Shown here in pieces: positions 3,191 through 39,876 of a stretch of DNA of 52,936 bases (position 1 is the first letter of the stretch; each line of letters begins with the position of its first letter). The stretch is taken from sequence record MT764207.1. One strand, given 5' to 3'. Source of the DNA: Escherichia phage JEP7. Position numbers and translations under genes: made by a program. Under the pieces are notes generated by a model. The model ran no database searches, was not told the DNA's origin, and saw only the letters and a program-made list of their open reading frames with translations.

Positions 3191-3904
3191 ATGGCACTTA
3201 AAACAGTTGTAACTGACCTTACCGAAGTTGATGAAGGCTTCCGTGGCCTGTATATCAAAGACGAAGCATCTGGCGCATTCCGTTTGGACGTTGAACCAGA
3301 CGAAAAAACGCTGAAAGAATTAGAAGACCTGCGCAAAGAAAAACAGCGTATGGAACAGCACACCAAAAAGCTTCTCGAAGAAAAGAAAAAAGAAGCTGAA
3401 CGTGCTCGCCTGGCTGAAGAAGAACGCGCACGTCGTGAGCGTGATGTTGAATCTCTTGAGCGCTCTATCAAAGAGAAACATCAGGCTGAACTGGAACAGT
3501 ATACTAATCGTCAGGCACAGCTGCAAGCTCAGCTGGAAGCGCAAATGGTTGATAACCTGGCGCTGAACCTGGCTAACCAACTCTCTGACACCCCGGCACT
3601 TATTATGCCACACATCAAGGCCCGACTGCGCGCTCAGGAAATTGATGGTAAGTGGCGTACTACTGTCGTGGATGTTATGGGTAACCCGACTGCTACAACG
3701 CCAGATGAACTAGTGGAACATATGCGCGCTGATAAGCAGTTTGCACCTCTTGTGCGTGGAACCAAGGCTGGCGGTGGCGGTGCCAACGGCGGCGGAGCTA
3801 ATCCTGGTGGGAACGGCGGTGGCGAACAGCACACTTTCGGAGGCGGGGACGACCGCATAGCACGTGCTCGTGCTAAAATCCAAAACACACAATGGGGCAA
3901 ATAA
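3191..3904 (+). CDS. scaffolding protein (putative)
   Basis: 237 aa, highly charged coiled-coil-like (EEKKKEAERARLAEEERARRERD), Gly-rich C-terminus, located between portal and major capsid genes. Confidence 0.5.
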   Translation: MALKTVVTDLTEVDEGFRGLYIKDEASGAFRLDVEPDEKTLKELEDLRKEKQRMEQHTKKLLEEKKKEAERARLAEEERARRERDVESLERSIKEKHQAELEQYTNRQAQLQAQLEAQMVDNLALNLANQLSDTPALIMPHIKARLRAQEIDGKWRTTVVDVMGNPTATTPDELVEHMRADKQFAPLVRGTKAGGGGANGGGANPGGNGGGEQHTFGGGDDRIARARAKIQNTQWGK

Positions 3905-28483: not shown

Positions 28484-29478
28484 CAGTCCCCTCTCACATA
28501 CGCAATTACAACTGTACGAGTTGAGTTTTCCATTTTGAGCGCCTGACTACCAAGCCCTATTCTTTCCATGCCTTTAGCCAGTTTACTCATCTGACTAATA
28601 ACACAGTTGAACGGTTTACTAAACTTAGTCGACTGGAACTTAATGTCGACGGACATCTTAGGAATAATCTTGTCTGGTAAGTCTGCTTTTGCTGTTGACT
28701 CGCCAGTTATCTCCAGAATGGCTTGACCTTCGTCATACCCAGTAAGCTGGTCCATAACTTCCAGGAATTCAGGAGTGATGGCCTGCATATCCATTTCCAT
28801 ATTGAAGAACTTCGATACGTCTGGCCATTTGGCTGCGAGTACCGGAGCATCCATCTGTACGCCATCCGCAAAACCGAAGAACATCTGACCGCGGGTATAT
28901 CCTACGCTTGTGGGTTCCATCTTCAGCTTAACCAGAGCCTCAAGCATTGGTTTGGCTATGGCACATTCAAATTCAAAATCTACATTCAACTTCTCGCGTA
29001 TCATATACTTACCGTTAGTGGCGTAAGCATAACCATCGCGCAGAAGTAAAGATGTTGCCCATACCTGCGGTGCTTCGTTAGGTACCCATTTGGCTAAGGC
29101 AGTTAATACCGGGAGTAATTCGCCATGTGCTGAATACCAGTTGTTAACTGTAGCAAGCGGCGGTATTGGTTCATTAAGCGCTTGCATTCTTGTTTTAAGT
29201 ACACCTGCTGTGACCGTGAGGTTTCCAGCGGCTGTAATGTTAAAAGTAATCTGTTCAGTTCTTGCCGCATTAACGGCCTTACGAAATGATTCAGCATCCA
29301 CTTGCAGGTCTGGAAATCCTTTACATGGCGCTCGTAGTAATACGTTCTTGTAGTATGAATGGATTGTTCCGTCTGCAATCCATATTTTGCCCATAAGACC
29401 ACTATCAGTATACTTGATGGGACGAGCTTGTTGAACGGCAGTCTGTATTTGTTTGGTGTCATAGTTAAACTTGCTCAT
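28483..29478 (-). CDS. hypothetical protein (replication-associated by position)
   Basis: 331 aa ORF between DNA polymerase and ThyA-like gene; no motif recognised. Confidence 0.3.
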   Translation of the reverse strand: MSKFNYDTKQIQTAVQQARPIKYTDSGLMGKIWIADGTIHSYYKNVLLRAPCKGFPDLQVDAESFRKAVNAARTEQITFNITAAGNLTVTAGVLKTRMQALNEPIPPLATVNNWYSAHGELLPVLTALAKWVPNEAPQVWATSLLLRDGYAYATNGKYMIREKLNVDFEFECAIAKPMLEALVKLKMEPTSVGYTRGQMFFGFADGVQMDAPVLAAKWPDVSKFFNMEMDMQAITPEFLEVMDQLTGYDEGQAILEITGESTAKADLPDKIIPKMSVDIKFQSTKFSKPFNCVISQMSKLAKGMERIGLGSQALKMENSTRTVVIAYVRGD

Positions 29479-29508
29479 AGCATAACGGGGCCGAAGCCCC
29501 GCTCCATC

Positions 29509-30393
29509 TTATACGGCCATTTGTAGTTTGATGTTTGGCATTGGTTTGTACTTCTCAACCATTGGCGTAACATCGGCAGGAGTGAAGTCAAACACTGACA
29601 CGTCGTAAATTGCGTTAATGTCAGGACGACCTTCAAAGTTAGTGTCCAGTGTAGTATCAGAATTGCTTACGATACGTTGCAGGAAAATCTTTGCAGCATC
29701 GATATGATTCTGATAGATGTGATAGTCACCCAGCGTAACAGTCATATCACCTACCCCAGTACCCAGCTCAGCAGCAATGGTAATCTGCAGCATTTGATGC
29801 AACAGAATATCGTGAGGCAGACCCAGAATAACATCCGCGCTACGCATGTGGAACATCAGCTCTAATTCATTGCGGTTGTTAATGAACAGCTGAAAACCAT
29901 GGTAACAAGGCGGAAGGGCCATGGCGTCCATCTCTTGTGGGTTCCATGCCGTAATGTATGCCCGGCGGTCAGTAGGCTTAACCTTCAGCGTTTCAATAAC
30001 ATCTTTAAGCTGGTTAGTAAGAACACCATTCTTGTAGAATGGCTTAATCCATTGCACGCCGTACACAGGACCTAAGTCACGGTTGTCTGGCGTACCCCAG
30101 CGTTTGTTTGCGTCCTGCAGGTTACCTTCCCACCAGTTGCAGCCAAAGCCTTTGAGCGTGTCGACGTTTGAAATACCGTTGATAAAGCAGTAAAGCTCAG
30201 CAGCAACAGCTTTGATGTTAACAGGTTTAAACACCGGCACCATCAGTTTGTTGTCGTTAAAAGCCAGCTTAAATGCTGTACCAAAACAACGGCGTGTACC
30301 AACACCTGTACGGTCTACAACATCCTCGCCTTTACGCAGGATAAAAGAAATGATGTCGCTGTAAAGAGAATCGACAGTGCTATATGTTTTCAT
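29509..30393 (-). CDS. thymidylate synthase-fold enzyme with Asn-to-Asp at the pyrimidine specificity position (putative dCMP C5-hydroxymethylase or -methylase)
   Basis: 294 aa; by-eye alignment to E. coli ThyA across DRTGVGT, DLGPVYGVQW, RRAYITAWNP, ALPPC (catalytic Cys163, codon 29905-29907), RSADVILGLPHD, GDYHIYQNH; residue matching ThyA Asn177 is Asp195 (codon 29809-29811). Confidence 0.85.
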   Translation of the reverse strand: MKTYSTVDSLYSDIISFILRKGEDVVDRTGVGTRRCFGTAFKLAFNDNKLMVPVFKPVNIKAVAAELYCFINGISNVDTLKGFGCNWWEGNLQDANKRWGTPDNRDLGPVYGVQWIKPFYKNGVLTNQLKDVIETLKVKPTDRRAYITAWNPQEMDAMALPPCYHGFQLFINNRNELELMFHMRSADVILGLPHDILLHQMLQITIAAELGTGVGDMTVTLGDYHIYQNHIDAAKIFLQRIVSNSDTTLDTNFEGRPDINAIYDVSVFDFTPADVTPMVEKYKPMPNIKLQMAV

Positions 30394-30986
30394 TAAAACA
30401 GTTCCTTTTGAGCCGGGTTAACGTGTGCGTCGATGATGGCCTGGATGTCAGGTGCTTTCCATCCTTCAGGCTTAACAATATCCTGACCAGACTTATGCTT
30501 ACTGTTGCTTGCATCAGGCTTAGCACGTTCTTTCGCCATGTTAGCAACTTGTACCGCATCCCATGCTGCGTCGAGTGGCCAGTTGTTGTTTGCACACCAG
30601 GTAATCAGGTGGATAATTAACTGGGCCAGACGGTCGCAATGAGTGTCTTCAGTATCCTTAACGTATACAATAAGGCCGTCAGCATCGAAGCGGTCCATAA
30701 ATCCGCATGGCGTAGTTAACAGAATCGGATACTCAAATTCGTTGGTGAACCATGCAGTCTGGTCATACAGATATAACGTACCTGCAGCAATGTAAATTAA
30801 ATCTACAATACCGTCTAAGAATCCAGCTTTATCGCCGTCCTTCTTAGCTTGTTTAATTTCTTCCATCTCCTCAATAAGACGGTCATAGCGAAGCTTGAAC
30901 TCAGGTTTACCGCCTTGACTAACAGGCTTGAGGTCAAACTTCTCATGAAAAGCGGTAACGCCTGCAGCAATTTTACTGAATCGCAT
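30393..30986 (-). CDS. MazG-like nucleoside triphosphate pyrophosphohydrolase (putative)
   Basis: 197 aa; acidic helical segment RLIEEMEEIKQAKKDGDKAGFLDGIVDLIYIAAG resembling the EExxE...D metal-binding helices of all-alpha NTP pyrophosphatases; AGGAG RBS. Confidence 0.45.
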   Translation of the reverse strand: MRFSKIAAGVTAFHEKFDLKPVSQGGKPEFKLRYDRLIEEMEEIKQAKKDGDKAGFLDGIVDLIYIAAGTLYLYDQTAWFTNEFEYPILLTTPCGFMDRFDADGLIVYVKDTEDTHCDRLAQLIIHLITWCANNNWPLDAAWDAVQVANMAKERAKPDASNSKHKSGQDIVKPEGWKAPDIQAIIDAHVNPAQKELF

Positions 30987-31371
30987 TTCGTAACTCCTTA
31001 CAAACAGTTTCGATAAACTTACGCTTAATTTCTGTAGACCAGATAATATGACGAGCCTGTTCTAAAGTGTCCCAACGTTCTTTACCCACAGGAAAGGGAA
31101 CAATGAAAAGGCCGGTACGGGATATGCGCTTGATAAACGGGAATTTACAGCGCATGGTTGTTTCAAACTTGATAAAGTTGGTTTGCACTTCGCGTGTAAA
31201 CTTGACCTTATCAAATTCATGTTCAAGAGTTTGAGCAAGGTTGCATACTTCCTGGAAAGAAGATGTGGGTAAATAATCTTCGCGGCCGACGGTGTTCACG
31301 TAGTCGATTTGGCCTTCGAGTCGAAGTATCCAAATCCTGTAATAAGCTTCAGCAACACGTTGTAGGTTCAT
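30973..31371 (-). CDS. hypothetical protein
   Basis: 132 aa; GAGGAGAG RBS; first gene downstream of promoter at 31398-31426. Confidence 0.3.
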   Translation of the reverse strand: MNLQRVAEAYYRIWILRLEGQIDYVNTVGREDYLPTSSFQEVCNLAQTLEHEFDKVKFTREVQTNFIKFETTMRCKFPFIKRISRTGLFIVPFPVGKERWDTLEQARHIIWSTEIKRKFIETVCKELRNAIQ

Positions 31372-31397
31372 TGTATCTCTCCTCTAAAAGATAACTT

Positions 31398-31426
31398 ATT
31401 ATACCACATCACTCTCTAGTGGTAAA
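31398..31426 (-). promoter_or_regulatory. promoter with TTTACC -35 and extended -10 (TGgTATAAT), CCAC/GTGG dyad in spacer
   Basis: minus-strand reading CTTTACCACTAGAGAGTGATGTGGTATAAT; 17-nt spacer. Confidence 0.5.
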
Positions 31427-31453
31427 GCACTTTTTACGCTTCTGGTAAAAATA

Positions 31454-31482
31454 AAAAGGACCAGCGTTAACTGGTCCTTTTG
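31454..31482 (-). terminator. rho-independent terminator (minus-strand orientation)
   Basis: GGACCAG-CGTTAA-CTGGTCC stem-loop with A-run on + strand, i.e. hairpin followed by TTTTTATTTTT on the minus strand. Confidence 0.6.
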
Positions 31483-32047
31483 GCAGGGTGGCGTAAGGAG
31501 ATACAAGGCATCATAACTATGCAACCAGGCAGCGCATATGAGATTGGCCAAAAGATTTACCATTTTAATCCCCGCGACGAGACGAAAGGAGGTGCCATCA
31601 AGTAGCCAATCACATATGCGTTACTTGCTGTGTGCTCTCACCGCGGAAAGTATAGAGCGTTGCACTTATCACACCGATGGAGTGGCAAAAGCACACAGCA
31701 AGTACAACCTTAGTTGTGGTGTCTTAGCACCTGAGTTATTGTGGATAACCTGCACCCGACGGGTGTCAAAAAGATACGCCAAAACACCACAACTAAAATT
31801 GTGACCGCCGTCTACACCAGGCGCCTGGGGTCAAGGTAGCGAGCCAATACCCTTTTCAGCGTCGGAGGAATCGAACCTCACACATCACGGCTTTTACCAA
31901 ATCTCGGTCAGCGAGCAGAATTGAACTGCATTCACTGGACACCCTCACTGTTTCAACACACCAGGCTTAATTGATTGTTGATAAGAAGAGAGATGTAAGG
32001 ATGTCCATTGAATGCACCTCCGTAGAGGTGCGTTCAGATCAGCGCTA
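31483..32047 (-). ncRNA. candidate structured non-coding RNA / long 3' UTR
   Basis: about 570 nt without a credible ORF between the stop of 32048-32515 and the terminator; contains nested inverted repeats (CTTAGTTGTGGTGT ... ACACCACAACTAA enclosing CACCC-GAC-GGGTG), a 12-bp palindrome CCAGGCGCCTGG and a tRNA T-arm-like GAGGTTCGATTCCTC on the minus strand. Confidence 0.3.
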
Positions 32048-32515
32048 TTATTCAGCAACTTCTTCGTTGTCGCCTTCGATCGCGCCAGCCAGTTTAGCAG
32101 CTTCAGCTTTAGCAGCTTCTGCTTTCTGGCGAGCTTTTTCAGCTTTCTCTTCAGCTTTGCGAATCTGCTCAGCAGCTTTCGCTTCGGCTTTTTCAGCTTT
32201 GATGCGAGCACGCTCTTCAGCTTTACGCTGTTTTTCAGCGGCTTTAGCAGCATCGCGTTCTGCTTTAGCGGTATCAACACGCTTAGCCAGAACTTTACCA
32301 GTGGCTTTACGCCAGTAGGTCAGCTGGGAAGAAACAGTACCACGGGACATTTCGGTAGTGGCAACAACTTCGTCCATAACGTCAGAGCTGGACTTGCCTT
32401 CTTCATGGGCTTTATCAGCCAGGTCCCATACGTAACGTGCGCCAGTACCAGCTGCCGGATACAGTACGCCGTTAACTTCTTCTTTACCAGTTACAAAAGT
32501 CAGTTTCTCGCTCAT
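32048..32515 (-). CDS. Lys/Ala/Glu-repeat protein (histone H1-like, putative DNA-binding)
   Basis: ATG 32515 with GAGGA RBS; C-terminal third is KAAEK/AEKA low-complexity repeats; codon choice typical of highly expressed genes. Confidence 0.4.
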   Translation of the reverse strand: MSEKLTFVTGKEEVNGVLYPAAGTGARYVWDLADKAHEEGKSSSDVMDEVVATTEMSRGTVSSQLTYWRKATGKVLAKRVDTAKAERDAAKAAEKQRKAEERARIKAEKAEAKAAEQIRKAEEKAEKARQKAEAAKAEAAKLAGAIEGDNEEVAE

Positions 32516-32621
32516 AATTTTTTCCTCGTCTACAGGGCTTAATGTTTGTTCGTTACGTGAGTTAATATACGTCATTTAAAAGAGTGTGTAAACACCTTTT
32601 TTAAACTTTTTTCATTAGTGT

Positions 32622-32849
32622 CTAGAAAGGCACATCATAGTCAAAAAGTTTACATCCGGAAGACAGGACTGCCGGCGGTGGTGTTTTGCCTCCGGATAAT
32701 AGACAACCTCCTGCCTGAAAACTACGGCAGTTCGCACAGCTCATATCCTGCAGGTATATAATAAGCTGCCGGCGAACATGCCGTGGTAAAGCTTTAGCTT
32801 GGGTAGCTACCCGTTCAAATAGTTCTCTGTCATCGAGCGCCATAGCCAT
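32622..32849 (-). CDS. hypothetical small Cys-containing protein
   Basis: 75 aa ORF overlapping the helicase 3' end; weak call. Confidence 0.25.
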   Translation of the reverse strand: MAMALDDRELFERVATQAKALPRHVRRQLIIYLQDMSCANCRSFQAGGCLLSGGKTPPPAVLSSGCKLFDYDVPF

Positions 32850-34500
32850 TCCCCCAGTCGTAGTTCATGATTTGTGGGTAGGGTCGTTTAATCCATACCT
32901 TGATGCGCTTAGGAATAGCCAGCTCACCCTTACGGCGAATAAACTCATCGCATGTTTCAGGCGGTTCGGTTCCTGCAGCATTACGCCACCAGGCATCTGC
33001 CATTTGCTTAGCATTACCATGGGCCTCAATATTTACCCAAGTTGTGTACACTTCCAGGTTTGAATAATACACAACCTTTATACTGTCAGGCCGTCCTTGC
33101 TTCTGGAATAAAGAATAGTTTACCAGCGTAACATCCTTATCCACAACACGAAGCTGACCGTTAGTCATTACCTCTTCTTCTGATGAAGTGAAGGCAATAG
33201 CAGGTCCGTTAACTGTAAATTCAAATTCATGTCCGCACATCGGATATACACCATTCTCGTCTGGCGTACTTCCTTTAGCCGGATGTTTACATGTACGAGC
33301 AGCATAACCACTTACCTGGTGGCAGATAGGGCACTCTTTACCGCCAGGTGTTTTCTCTGACCGTTTCTTTTTCTTCTTACCAAGACGTGGCGGAACAGCC
33401 GGGTCATCAATAGGACCAAGGTCAATGGTGTTAGATGTGAAGTCCATAACAAGACAGTCATGCTTACCAGGCGCTGTACGTAATCCTCGACCGAGTATCT
33501 GCACCCACAAGGCAACAGACGTGGACGGGCGCAAGATGCCGAGCATATCAATTTCAGGATAGTCAAAGCCTGTTGTCAATACGTTTACGTTTACGCATAC
33601 CCTGGCACGTCCGCTTGTAAACTCTTCCAGTGCGGCTTCACGTTCTTTCTTTGTAAGACCGCCATGCACAACTACAGTCTGCCACCCGCGCAGATTAAAT
33701 TCGTCTGCTATGTTGTGGGCGTGCTCAACACTTGTGGCAAATACAAGAACGTGGTTCCTGTCTTTACCGTAGTGCATCATCTCACGAATAGCCGCGACTG
33801 TTATACTATGCTGGTTGGCTACCTTCTCGAGCTCTGACGGGATATAGTCACCCATCCTTTCGCCAACATTACTGGTGTCAATCTTGGTTAACACTTTCTT
33901 GTTGACCAGGCGCGACAGGAAGCCTTCATTTACCAGTCGGGTGAATGCGTCAGGTGTTGTAAGGTCATAGCAGATGTCGGTAAATATACCACAGTCAAGC
34001 AAGTGACCACCTGCCAGTCGATACGGAGTTGCTGTAAGGCCTGTTACCTTTACCTTAGGATTAAGCTCTTTGAAATGAGCAATAACCTTACGGTATGTTG
34101 TTTCAGACTTCTCAGGAACGAGATGGGCTTCGTCAATGAATATAAGATTGAACTTACCTGCTTCTTCCAGGTTCTTAATAATCGACTGTACTGACGCTAC
34201 AACTATACGACCTGAAAAGTCTTTGTGTCCTGCACCTGAAGAGTAGATTGATACTGGTGCTTGTGGCCAGTGGCGAACAATTGCTTTGGCGTCTTGTTCT
34301 ACCAGCTCCTTGACGTGTGTCAATATAAGAATGCGCTGACGTGGATAGCTGGTAAGAATATCCTTCATCAACATACCAAGCACAGGTGATTTACCTGAAC
34401 CTGTTGGCATGACAATAAGTGGGTTACCACTATAAGAATTGAAGTACGACCACCAAGCGGTCACAGCTTCTTGTTGATACCAGCGAGCTTCAAAAGCCAT
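32830..34500 (-). CDS. superfamily 2 DEAD/DEAH-box DNA helicase with C-terminal zinc-ribbon
   Basis: 556 aa; motif I VMPTGSGKS, motif II FIDEAH, motif III-like LTATP; C-terminal CPICH...C...C cluster. Confidence 0.8.
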   Translation of the reverse strand: MAFEARWYQQEAVTAWWSYFNSYSGNPLIVMPTGSGKSPVLGMLMKDILTSYPRQRILILTHVKELVEQDAKAIVRHWPQAPVSIYSSGAGHKDFSGRIVVASVQSIIKNLEEAGKFNLIFIDEAHLVPEKSETTYRKVIAHFKELNPKVKVTGLTATPYRLAGGHLLDCGIFTDICYDLTTPDAFTRLVNEGFLSRLVNKKVLTKIDTSNVGERMGDYIPSELEKVANQHSITVAAIREMMHYGKDRNHVLVFATSVEHAHNIADEFNLRGWQTVVVHGGLTKKEREAALEEFTSGRARVCVNVNVLTTGFDYPEIDMLGILRPSTSVALWVQILGRGLRTAPGKHDCLVMDFTSNTIDLGPIDDPAVPPRLGKKKKKRSEKTPGGKECPICHQVSGYAARTCKHPAKGSTPDENGVYPMCGHEFEFTVNGPAIAFTSSEEEVMTNGQLRVVDKDVTLVNYSLFQKQGRPDSIKVVYYSNLEVYTTWVNIEAHGNAKQMADAWWRNAAGTEPPETCDEFIRRKGELAIPKRIKVWIKRPYPQIMNYDWGNGYGAR

Positions 34501-34526
34501 TTATCATCTCCTCATTAACTTTATAT

Positions 34527-34555
34527 ATTATACCACTTCCTTGTGGTAAAGTATA
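34527..34555 (-). promoter_or_regulatory. promoter with extended -10 (TGgTATAAT) and CCAC/GTGG dyad
   Basis: minus-strand reading CTTTACCACAAGGAAGTGGTATAAT upstream of helicase gene. Confidence 0.45.
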
Positions 34556-34558
34556 CTT

Positions 34559-35437
34559 TTATTTTAAGGAAAGTTTAACGGGCTTCTCATCCTGCGGGAA
34601 GACATCAGCAGGGCGATAATCATCACAAGCTGCTAATTGCTCTTCGAGTGTTTCGAGTTCTTTCTGGTGCTTGTTGCAGTACCACACTTTGCCCTGGAGC
34701 GGTTTACTGTAATGGCAGGTTCTGCAGTTCCTGTCTGGCATTGCTCCTTTGTGGCACAGGTGATGGTATTCGCACATCCCTGGTTTGCACTCCCACCAAA
34801 TAGGCGATTCAGAAATCTTCGGCATATCCAAACCAGATTCCGCATATACAACAGCCTCCGCTTTACTCAGTTGTATGTCGCTTTCCAGTAAGTCAATCTC
34901 GACCACCTCAAAATACATCTCGTCGGTGTTCTTGTTGATTGCGATGTACACAGCTTGATTCAGCTTAAGCTTCCGCATGTATACCTGCATCTGGGCATAG
35001 TGTACCGGCTTACTTGCTTTAACAGACTTGAGCTTGACTAACTCTTTAAACGACTTATCGCCATGCGTCTTGAATTCAGCAAGTGCCCATACGCCTTTGT
35101 ATTTAATTACACAGTCACAAGACCCAGAGAAGATGTCATTGAATTCGTGTATGCGCCATTGCTTACCAGTCTTGGGATTGACGTCCAGCACCTCATCACA
35201 TACGGAACGAAGCCACTTTACAATTCTGCTTTCTTCAAGGTTACCTCGCTCAAACAGACGAAGTTGCTTAGCTGTAAACTTCTCCTTGAACGACCAGTGC
35301 AGAACGTGCCAAAGATAGCGATAGCAGTTGTGCCCTATCTGCGATGCTCCAAGATGCCCGCGTCGTTCTTCTCTTTCGTGGGCTTCGACTATCTTGATGT
35401 CAATACGTTTCTGCAGGTCGTCAAACGGACTTGGCAT
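34559..35437 (-). CDS. PD-(D/E)XK exonuclease (Cas4/RecB-nuclease-like) with C-terminal Cys cluster
   Basis: ATG 35437 with GAGGAG RBS; D...EFK motif (DCVIKYKGVWALAEFKTHGD); C-terminal CKPGMC...C..C....C cysteine cluster. Confidence 0.5.
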   Translation of the reverse strand: MPSPFDDLQKRIDIKIVEAHEREERRGHLGASQIGHNCYRYLWHVLHWSFKEKFTAKQLRLFERGNLEESRIVKWLRSVCDEVLDVNPKTGKQWRIHEFNDIFSGSCDCVIKYKGVWALAEFKTHGDKSFKELVKLKSVKASKPVHYAQMQVYMRKLKLNQAVYIAINKNTDEMYFEVVEIDLLESDIQLSKAEAVVYAESGLDMPKISESPIWWECKPGMCEYHHLCHKGAMPDRNCRTCHYSKPLQGKVWYCNKHQKELETLEEQLAACDDYRPADVFPQDEKPVKLSLK

Positions 35438-39601: not shown

Positions 39602-39876
39602 TTACGTTTGTGTGGAGGTGTATATGTTTTCTTCGGTACGCCGAACATGGCCGCATATGTACCGACTTCTTTCTTTGTTGGCTTATCCACAATCTCGTCA
39701 ATCACGATTAAGTCATGGTTGATATTGCGAAAGACTTCAGCCGCTCTTTTCTCAACAGGAGTAAAGTCAATAACCAGCTCTTTGCCTATCAGGCTTTCTT
39801 TGAACTTGTCAAATAGCCATTTGTCACGCGGACCAGGATTGCCCATAAACATAACACGCATCTGCTTATTGTCCAT
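39598..39876 (-). CDS. hypothetical protein
   Basis: 92 aa basic protein. Confidence 0.3.
   Translation of the reverse strand: MDNKQMRVMFMGNPGPRDKWLFDKFKESLIGKELVIDFTPVEKRAAEVFRNINHDLIVIDEIVDKPTKKEVGTYAAMFGVPKKTYTPPHKRK

Follow-up and report, generated by a model that had tools for sequence, protein, structure and literature searches.

In transfer RNA (tRNA), C56 of the T-loop pairs with G19 of the D-loop. The tRNA-like structures (TLSs) of plant RNA viruses, which are 3′-terminal, carry CCA and are aminoacylated, rebuild acceptor, T-arm and elbow by non-canonical connectivity, as does the tRNA-like domain of transfer-messenger RNA (tmRNA). GOLLD and ROOL are large structured phage-borne RNAs often found near tRNA genes, and the tRNA clusters of phages are usually taken to be no more than sets for codon supply or anti-defence. 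The present work concerns a gap of about 570 nt in Escherichia phage JEP7 (MT764207.1; the whole stretch of 52,936 nucleotides is called the window), which very probably specifies a structured RNA of a phage family here termed twin T-arm RNA, after the two T-arms of its tRNA-like core. A permuted tRNA-like domain has been described in the YrlA-type bacterial Y RNAs: between the 5′ and 3′ strands of a stem come, in this order, a linker, a T-arm, a closed acceptor hairpin and a D-loop element. YrlA, which some phages also carry, is acted on by tRNA enzymes (Chen et al., 2014; PMC4201824). The half of the JEP7 core enclosed by helix Pc presents T-arm B, hairpin C and the sequence CUGGUG in the same permuted order. 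However, the twin T-arm family has a second T-arm and a GG loop, lacks a D-stem, and is found in tRNA arrays rather than beside a Ro60 gene. No GNCGAA(N)G Ro-binding motif was seen by eye on the minus strand from 32047 to 31800, and a Ro60 (TROVE) gene is absent among the neighbouring genes, the rest of the genome not having been scanned for TROVE.

With tRNAs the family shares UUCRANU T-loops, GG loops with a covarying pair similar to G19:C56, a length of about 100 nt, comparable to class II tRNAs, and placement in a tRNA slot with 1-nt spacers. It differs from them in having two T-arms and no anticodon arm, D-stem, uninterrupted 7-bp acceptor stem or CCA. An initial annotation of this DNA, made from its letters, had suggested a structured RNA that might be a long 3′ untranslated region (UTR), a small RNA or a tRNA-derived fragment. 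Its link to tRNA survives as kinship with a tRNA-like family, not as a tRNA, tmRNA or tRNA fragment: ARAGORN found 0 tRNA or tmRNA genes in the window and in six related loci, and the tRNA model RF00005 gave no match at E up to 10 in 31300-32200. The candidate tmRNA was dropped, with no ARAGORN and no Rfam match in the window. Covariance-model scans, proposed at the time as a check, returned no known family. Rfam 15 gave 0 matches in the whole window at gathering thresholds (GOLLD, ROOL, group I intron, riboswitches, 6S and Y RNA included), and at E up to 10 the region gave chance-level matches only, with mir-957 on a long hairpin. Comparison with related phages, also proposed, did reveal compensatory base changes between clades; together with UNCG and GNRA loops and G.U-type substitutions that pair only on the minus strand, they uphold the suggestion of a structured RNA.

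By megablast, the window genome belongs to Rosemountvirus (BP63-like myoviruses of Salmonella/E. coli), with 99.5% identity of the queried region to phages CF2, BEC1-17 and LPSEYT. A gap of about 530-680 nt stands at the equivalent place in three clades, namely Rosemountvirus, Loughboroughvirus (S144, SE4, ZCSE2) and a third one with fHy-Eco03, KE25/26 and SE1_KM, and its identity within the genus is 95-99%. On the minus strand of JEP7, the core is recognised by R1, a covariance model with a hand-derived structure that was built from 13 compact members of 98-104 nt on unrelated metagenomic phage contigs, 0 of them from the Rosemount group (69.9 bits, E 1e-14, model positions 1-101 of 101; the sole match in the window). 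The 5′ half of the family consensus runs AAU (weakly paired with the 3′ tail as helix P00), T-arm A, a 5-6-nt linker, the 5′ strand of helix P0, GAGAUU..GGUAAA and the 5′ strand of Pc; the 3′ half runs linker, T-arm B, hairpin C (often with a GNRA loop), A..GGUG.., the Pc 3′ strand, 1 nt, the P0 3′ strand and a tail. T-arm A, P0, Pc, T-arm B and hairpin C can all form in this order in the window, with standard pairs throughout (Table 1), and the expansion of hairpin C amounts to about 32-41 nt.

The core helices are kept by covariation. T-arm A is 100% paired in 47 distinct sequences, with three of its four pairs changing on both sides. The stem of T-arm B is GAGG/CCUC in JEP7, CUGGG/CCCAG in Loughboroughvirus (S144) and GCCUG/CAGGC in the fHy-Eco03 clade, and family-wide it is 94.5% paired, with 4 covarying pairs. 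Similarly, Pc is CCGU/ACGG here, CCAU/AUGG in S144 and CCCU/AGGG in fHy-Eco03; Pc and hairpin C show covariation at all 4 pairs each, and Pc, T-arm B and hairpin C carry compensatory changes between the three related clades. In alignment A4 (MAFFT, unfitted), 89.9% of cells were paired vs 72.8% after shuffling, and covariation was 0.441 vs 0.138 (0 of 500 shuffles; slid controls ≤0.115). The corresponding values were 91.4% vs 64.4% and 0.544 vs 0.122 in the model-fitted alignment A5 (0/500; 20 of 24 pairs changing on both sides), and 87.8% vs 65.1% and 0.399 vs 0.128 in A6, also model-fitted (0/500). All four P0 pairs change on both sides in A6, where variants include GAUU/AAUC, UACC/GGUA, UAUU/GAUA and GGCC/GGCU, among others. 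RNAalifold independently recovered T-arm A, P0 and T-arm B from the unfitted alignment.

Covariation between loops suggests, moderately but not conclusively, that each T-loop docks on a GG segment in the manner of G19:C56, which would give the RNA two tRNA-like elbows; in the window the two pairs would be 31923:31897 and 31873:31817. In nearly all members, the third base of T-loop A is C and the GG segment is intact. Where this C is replaced by A, GG becomes GU in two of three cases (L125 and L109; L numbers are labels of the collected loci), and GU occurs in 0 of about 77 others. At T-loop B, a change of C to G coincides with UGG to UGC in the fHy-Eco03 clade. The sequence GCCUGGUGU is present twice on the minus strand, in the D-loop-like segment of the core (31814-31822) and in the loop of the upstream helix P2 (31958-31966); the P2-loop copy could be a third docking site for a T-loop.

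The family was assembled from a seed, a 16-mer of the conserved junction, which retrieved 52 stretches from IMG/VR. A subset of these, on unrelated phage contigs, is homologous to the core over an extended length (nhmmer, E 1e-8 to 1e-11). Further members came from 40 metagenome contigs and, by a looser pattern, from 47 IMG/VR loci, and a third pattern contributed a few more, including contigs of 409-412 kb. Among named phages, the RNA is carried by Cellulophaga phages phi19:3 and phi13:2 and Rhizobium phages RHph_N38 and I1_6. In total, about 100 instances were collected. R1 matches 53 + 47 further loci, once per collected locus, and 0 of their many tRNAs. When the metagenome pattern was run against 100,044 bacterial and archaeal species (one genome each), it gave 1 match, a Rosemount-like contig in a metagenome-assembled genome; set against the 40 metagenome matches, this indicates that the element is essentially phage-specific. 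An Rfam scan of six other element-carrying loci returned ordinary tRNAs only, and blastn of two other family variants against cultured phages found no further carriers. In L034, ARAGORN calls a 96-nt ‘tRNA-Ser(cga)’ at 3453-3548 that overlaps the element (upstream hairpin, T-arm A, junction and T-arm B). This call is probably false and caused by T-arm B, and calls of this kind may hide family members in annotations.

Outside the window, the element is frequently associated with tRNA genes. Of the first 60 or so loci, which were those scanned with ARAGORN, about half have it directly 3′ of a same-strand tRNA gene. In at least 15 loci it begins 1 nt past the tRNA; in L051, L102, L134 and L059 its end is also 1 nt before the next tRNA, so that it fills exactly a tRNA slot. 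The element lies at the borders of operons, with replication or recombination modules, terminase genes or integrases as its surroundings in several cases, and in 27 loci no partner gene was found to recur near it. Adjacency to a tRNA is frequent in the family, not universal: no tRNA lies upstream of the element in the window, where helix P2 precedes T-arm A, and Rosemountviruses are without tRNA genes. Seven loci (L106, L111, L113, L123, L135-L137) are metagenome contigs with 7-15 tRNA genes, for some of which ARAGORN gave no amino acid; the contigs may belong to large recoded phages. In most of these seven the element directly follows tRNA-Gln(CUG), and in L111 it follows a tRNA with a CUA (amber-reading) anticodon.

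Other known RNAs resemble the family in part. Like TLSs, it would obtain a tRNA shape from non-canonical connectivity in a viral or bacterial RNA. However, no CCA follows P0 (GGUCACAAUUUU), the element is internal to its transcript in this phage, and a possible TLS-like pseudoknot with P0 (S1, UCG/CGA) was not supported, being broken in L193 and L194. GOLLD and ROOL differ from it in that neither gave an Rfam match at E up to 10, and the conserved unit is only about 100 nt. The rnaC and rnaD genes of T4 (species 1 and 2 RNAs) are similar in specifying small stable RNAs directly after a phage tRNA; rnaC has a T-arm, and rnaD, whose first base is 1 nt past tRNA-Arg, shares its initial AAUG with the family. 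Homology with them was not supported: R1 gave no match at E up to 10 in the rnaC/rnaD region (L140, 2909-3172) and the architectures were not alignable by eye. T4 rnaD does contain UCGCUACCGGUAAG, comparable to UCGCUGACC...GGUAAA of the family, and ends in ACGGCGCACCA, comparable to the family’s ACGGCGGUCA, by distant kinship or coincidence. A proposed pairing of the conserved junction with E. coli ribosomal RNA (rRNA) was likewise discarded: the complement is a 9-mer in 23S (position 578), and the duplex energy is within the shuffled background. No description of the gap was found in the Rosemount or S144 papers. The core sequence was not found in the literature searched, which for the large automated surveys of phage structured RNAs (PMC10690425) means their accessible part; an unnamed entry there is possible. 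The twin-T-arm architecture, the breadth of phages and the tRNA-slot context are absent from Rfam 15 and from the literature searched, and neither the initial annotation nor any record annotation inspected had recognised the family. As a principle, tRNA mimicry by non-coding RNAs is known from YrlA, tmRNA, viral TLSs and possibly the stable RNAs of T4.

The gap as a whole is predicted to fold strongly. RNA of the minus strand from 32060 to 31440 has a minimum free energy (MFE) of -241.9 kcal/mol vs -183 +/- 6 for dinucleotide shuffles (z -9.5). The plus strand of the same region reaches -204.5 kcal/mol (z -7.3), making the minus strand 37 kcal/mol better. Almost all substitutions in the long hairpins LH2 and LH3 interchange U-A or C-G with U.G, which pair only on the minus strand, and support a structured RNA of that strand. 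Hairpin P1 is near-invariant in 10 aligned phages, its loop being UACG here and UUCG in other clades. Between clades, P2 shows GC to AU and AU to GC double changes as well as wobble changes, and its loop contains GCCUGGUGYGUUG in all clades without variation; its terminal AUU/AAU pairs abut T-arm A, replacing the closing helix P00. LH1 has five fully compensatory pairs relative to the fHy-Eco03 clade, along with wobble changes. LH2 varies mostly between U-A/C-G and U.G, with one CG to UA double change. Clade-specific indels are found in this part of the RNA. LH3 is wholly absent from Loughboroughvirus (deleted in S144 and SE4), and the order of modules is changed in the fHy-Eco03 clade (L005/L006/L008), where LH1 with its DnaA-box tip lies between P2 and T-arm A and another hairpin, starting UUUAGUUG, follows the core. 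The sequences suggest that hairpins may have been transposed or duplicated within the RNA between clades.

All features listed by the initial annotation exist, several with coordinates shifted by 1-2 nt. Its T-arm GAGGTTCGATTCCTC, put at about 31863-31877, is T-arm B (Table 1). The 12-bp palindrome CCAGGCGCCTGG occupies 31817-31828, not 31818-31829, and consists of the 3′ strand of hairpin C and the conserved CUGGUG. The hairpin GCACCTC/GAGGTGC, reported at 32013-32030, is P1, and its loop is CGTA on the plus strand and UACG on the minus strand. The nested dyad has long arms at 31704-31728 and 31778-31802 around CACCC-GAC-GGGTG, and corresponds to LH1. The strong minus-strand terminator was found as described, with a 12-bp stem and a U-run.

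Some further observations concern the P1/P2 junction. The P1 3′ strand contains GGAGGUG, and an AUG 7 nt on opens a 13-codon mini-open reading frame (mini-ORF; MDILTSLFLSTIN, window 31986-32027, minus strand). This frame has 13 codons here, 25 in S144 and 18 in fHy-Eco03, and only its first 5 codons, in the P2 5′ strand, are conserved. Its Shine-Dalgarno-like (SD-like) sequence is paired in P1 to CACCUC, which resembles the 3′ end of 16S rRNA. LH3 also has a sequence resembling that end (CACCUCCUUU, at ~31588-31601, minus strand), and a 14-nt stretch of LH3 is 86% complementary to the P1/P2 junction (32008-32021), 406 nt apart (inverted repeat I5). An alternative long-range pairing of LH3 with P1/P2, specific to Rosemountvirus, is possible. 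In phage rivia (L009, MT074438), a natural deletion of 143 nt, equivalent to window ~31752-31895 and with GGT microhomology at its junction, removes T-arm B and hairpin C together with the 3′ strands of Pc and P0, and extends into LH1, whose 5′ arm is lost.

The gap lies in a helicase, thymidylate synthase and DNA polymerase module, with a helicase, a 75-aa ORF, the KAAEK-repeat gene, a 132-aa ORF, a pyrophosphohydrolase and thymidylate synthase as neighbours. Sequence searches of the neighbouring proteins against Pfam, PHROGs and PDB were uninformative, and an IMG/VR search anchored on the 132-aa protein gave the same known phages only. The KAAEK gene is always immediately 5′ of the structured RNA in the three clades, and the terminator is kept in all of them, its stem differing in sequence in the fHy-Eco03 clade. 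The promoter upstream of the KAAEK gene is also annotated in BP63 at the equivalent place, and is predicted to drive this gene and, by read-through, the structured region. A consensus scan found no sigma-70 promoter inside the gap, the only ones nearby being that promoter and one at 31426-31398, past the terminator; the phage-specific promoter motif GTGCTTTAC is absent within the gap. Lying between a promoter with its gene and a terminator, and lacking an internal promoter, the gap is formally a 3′ extension of the KAAEK messenger RNA (mRNA). It is repeated elsewhere in the genome by one 13-mer only, as chance predicts. Compared with vB_EcoM_PiR (OM313461.1), which equals the window in length and coordinates, positions 28880-34620 show 41 substitutions and 0 indels, concentrated in non-coding DNA. 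Of these, 23 fall in 31437-31680, where the window has BP63/CF2-type sequence; a mosaic, a different record version or an assembly difference could be the cause.

Table 1. Positions, in window coordinates, of the twin T-arm RNA, its substructures and the surrounding transcription signals and genes.
Feature	Sequence or size	Position	Strand	Remarks
tRNA-like core, twin T-arm RNA family member	~133 nt	31800..31932	-	full-length match of model R1
T-arm A	GCAG-UUCAAUU-CUGC	31915..31929	-	50 nt upstream of T-arm B
P0, 5′ strand	GACC	31909-31906	-	pairs with GGUC 31806-31803
D-loop-like segment	GAGAUUUGGUAAAAG	31905-31891	-	GG 31898-31897 is the proposed partner of T-loop A
Pc	CCGU with ACGG	31890-31887 with 31811-31808	-	encloses T-arm B, hairpin C and CUGGUG
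T-arm B	GAGG-UUCGAUU-CCUC	31865..31879	-	T-arm of the initial annotation
Hairpin C, expanded	CGCU with GGCG; inner AAGG/CCUU helix	31861-31858 with 31825-31822	-	cmsearch alignment
Second D-loop-like segment	CCUGGUGUAG	31821-31812	-	cmsearch alignment
P0, 3′ strand	GGUC	31806-31803	-	pairs with GACC 31909-31906
P1 hairpin	7-bp stem GCACCUC/GAGGUGC, UNCG tetraloop	32014..32031	-	right after KAAEK stop codon
P2, long-range helix	18 bp (32013-31995 with 31948-31930)	31930..32013	-	two fully compensatory pairs
LH1	~25-bp lower stem, branched tip (CACCC-GUC-GGGUG; GGUUAU-CCACA-AUAACU)	31704..31802	-	directly after P0
LH2	20-bp near-perfect lower stem	31623..31703	-	MFE
LH3		31533..31620	-	Rosemountvirus-specific; MFE; wobble-type changes only
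Sigma-70-like promoter	TTTACA-17-TATATT	32564..32592	-	consensus scan, 10/12 match
KAAEK-repeat gene, phrog_28664	155 aa	32048..32515	-	stop codon abuts structured RNA
132-aa gene	132 aa	30973-31371	-	other flanking gene of gap
Intrinsic terminator	12-bp stem then TATTTTT	31454..31481	-	ends transcription unit

The best explanation of these data, which we hold to be moderately probable, is that the gap is the 3′ non-coding part of a minus-strand unit whose core is the tRNA-like RNA of a widespread phage family, read by enzymes that recognise tRNA shape and perhaps serving as a decoy or scaffold. The unit would run from the promoter (about 32592-32564) through the KAAEK gene and about 570 nt of structured RNA to the terminator (31481-31454), transcription presumably reaching the gap by read-through from the consensus KAAEK promoter. 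In arrays, where the RNA has its compact form of ~100 nt, tRNA-shape enzymes may excise, modify or stabilise it. The 1-nt spacing suggests that its ends arise from the same cleavages by which the adjacent tRNAs are matured, its 3′ end being created by RNase P at the tRNA that follows. Since the RNA has tRNA elbows without anticodon or CCA, it most plausibly acts by shape, and may be a decoy or scaffold for some host factor that reads the elbow of tRNA and not the anticodon. Candidates would include RNase P, RNase BN/Z, TruB, TrmA, the CCA-adding enzyme, a tRNA-processing factor, a ribosomal factor or elbow contacts of the ribosome, and a tRNA-targeting defence nuclease. On geometric grounds, a stack of P00, P0 and Pc would have 11 bp and one unpaired layer, close in length to the acceptor/T ruler of tRNA (12 bp), and elbow B would lie at its end. 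In Rosemountvirus, the part that adjacent tRNAs play elsewhere in stacking, processing or protection probably falls to P1, P2 and LH1-3. The decoy or adaptor mechanism as such is a tentative proposal, to which we give a rather low probability.

The same region could instead be a purely cis-acting 3′ UTR, in which hairpins shield the KAAEK mRNA from 3′ exonucleases or provide sites for RNase III or RNase E and the core is a processing signal (tRNA punctuation) with no function in trans. The location between stop codon and terminator, with no internal promoter, agrees with this, as do the near-perfect stems of 20-25 bp in LH1 and LH2, a length sufficient for RNase III, and the family-specific hairpins, which vary between clades, LH3 being dispensable. 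However, the core stands by itself in most other phages, as a ~100-nt unit within tRNA arrays or between operons and with no homologous gene upstream, and its two elbows are kept across phages of Bacteroidota, Alphaproteobacteria and Enterobacteria, which is beyond the needs of a cleavage signal; we consider a cis-acting role unlikely, if the most serious of the alternatives. A function at the level of DNA, as a replication origin or primosome-assembly region whose inverted repeats extrude and whose DnaA box recruits host DnaA, would account for a perfect DnaA box (TTATCCACA, 31740-31748, minus strand) in the apical hairpin of LH1, invariant in three clades while the flanking stem varies. The genome has 3 perfect boxes vs about 0.4 expected (25 vs 13.5 with ≤1 mismatch), the region lies within a replication/nucleotide-metabolism module, and several other family members are in replication or recombination modules. 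The other perfect boxes are at 33137-33145 and 39683-39691, both on the plus strand; IMG/VR matches to the DnaA-box hairpin motif were set aside as chance, nhmmer finding no extended homology. An origin is nevertheless improbable: the region has no AT-rich unwinding element (GC 0.46-0.50, at or above the flanks), no iterons were found in it, GC skew turns near 26 kb and not here, and a second nearby box-like site is not conserved, leaving a single conserved perfect box and no cluster. RNA is favoured by the G.U substitutions, which are strand-specific, by UNCG/GNRA loops and T-loop motifs, and by the shared orientation with tRNAs at 1-nt spacing.

Two further readings deny the region a role as functional RNA. 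That the T-arms are decaying remnants of tRNA genes in a non-functional spacer would fit the failure of ARAGORN and of the Rfam tRNA model to find anything, the lack of tRNAs in relatives and the tolerance of rivia for its deletion, yet it is very improbable in view of the 95-99% identity within the genus, of compensatory changes that maintain structure between genera, and of the same non-tRNA architecture recurring with strong covariation in about 100 unrelated phage contigs. Least probable of all, and scarcely credible, is a coding role for the region, with one or more small proteins as products, in keeping with the annotation of several GenBank records. ORFs of 30-88 aa are present on both strands, among them the plus-strand ORF 31538-31804 (88 aa) already noticed and discounted by the initial annotation, and records annotate 0-5 ‘hypothetical proteins’; the SD-like GGAGGUG with its AUG 7 nt later and 13-codon ORF at P1/P2 also belongs here. 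Against this, the small ORFs annotated by depositors vary in number, place and strand from record to record, and indels remove or shift them. The clade-specific indels argue against a conserved ORF, and LH3, about a third of the 88-aa ORF, is missing in Loughboroughvirus; the mini-ORF is conserved only where P2 is, with its SD paired within P1. The earlier judgement that the gap has no credible ORF stands, none being conserved across the three clades.

Several points weigh against a tRNA-like RNA with a decoy function. Members were gathered with exact sequence patterns, which inflates the conservation of the junction; the apparent ‘invariant 16-mer’ is partly ascertainment bias, and P0 looked fixed only in the first pattern search. 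Alignments A5 and A6 were fitted to the model, and pairing in the closing helix P00 is weak (52-69%). For the tertiary pairs the tally is 3 events, 2 exceptions and 1 ambiguous case: the change of C to A in T-loop A of L059/L114 is uncompensated, as is the T-loop B exception in L146, and Loughboroughvirus, with U in T-loop B and CGGAUG for CUGGUG, could form U-A, or U.G with a 1-nt shift. LH2 and LH3 are nearly without double compensations. Rivia was isolated as a plaque former despite its deletion, which suggests that the element is dispensable for plaque formation in culture. Transcription is predicted from a consensus promoter and a terminator, and no 3′ CCA, anticodon arm or recurrent partner gene was found that would directly support the decoy function.

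It is possible, though we would not call it likely, that the core represents a class of non-coding RNA widespread in phages and previously undescribed: a tRNA mimic with two elbows, which sits in tRNA slots, is processed by host tRNA enzymes and acts by shape as a decoy or adaptor for a universally conserved tRNA-binding machine. Its carriers would be phages of several bacterial phyla, from 50-kb genomes to jumbo genomes of >400 kb, and its roles might be neutralising tRNA-directed antiphage nucleases, or hijacking RNase P or the ribosome. The family would explain the conserved ‘empty’ 0.6 kb of Rosemount- and Loughborough-type phages, which are under development for biocontrol of Salmonella and E. 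coli and in which annotators currently place arbitrary hypothetical ORFs. The covariance model and the natural deletion mutant rivia make the question directly testable. If the reading is true, the RNA would be a new Rfam family and a compact natural case of tRNA-shape mimicry, and a conserved, non-decoding double-elbow RNA within tRNA arrays would be a new player in the conflict between phage and host over tRNA and translation.

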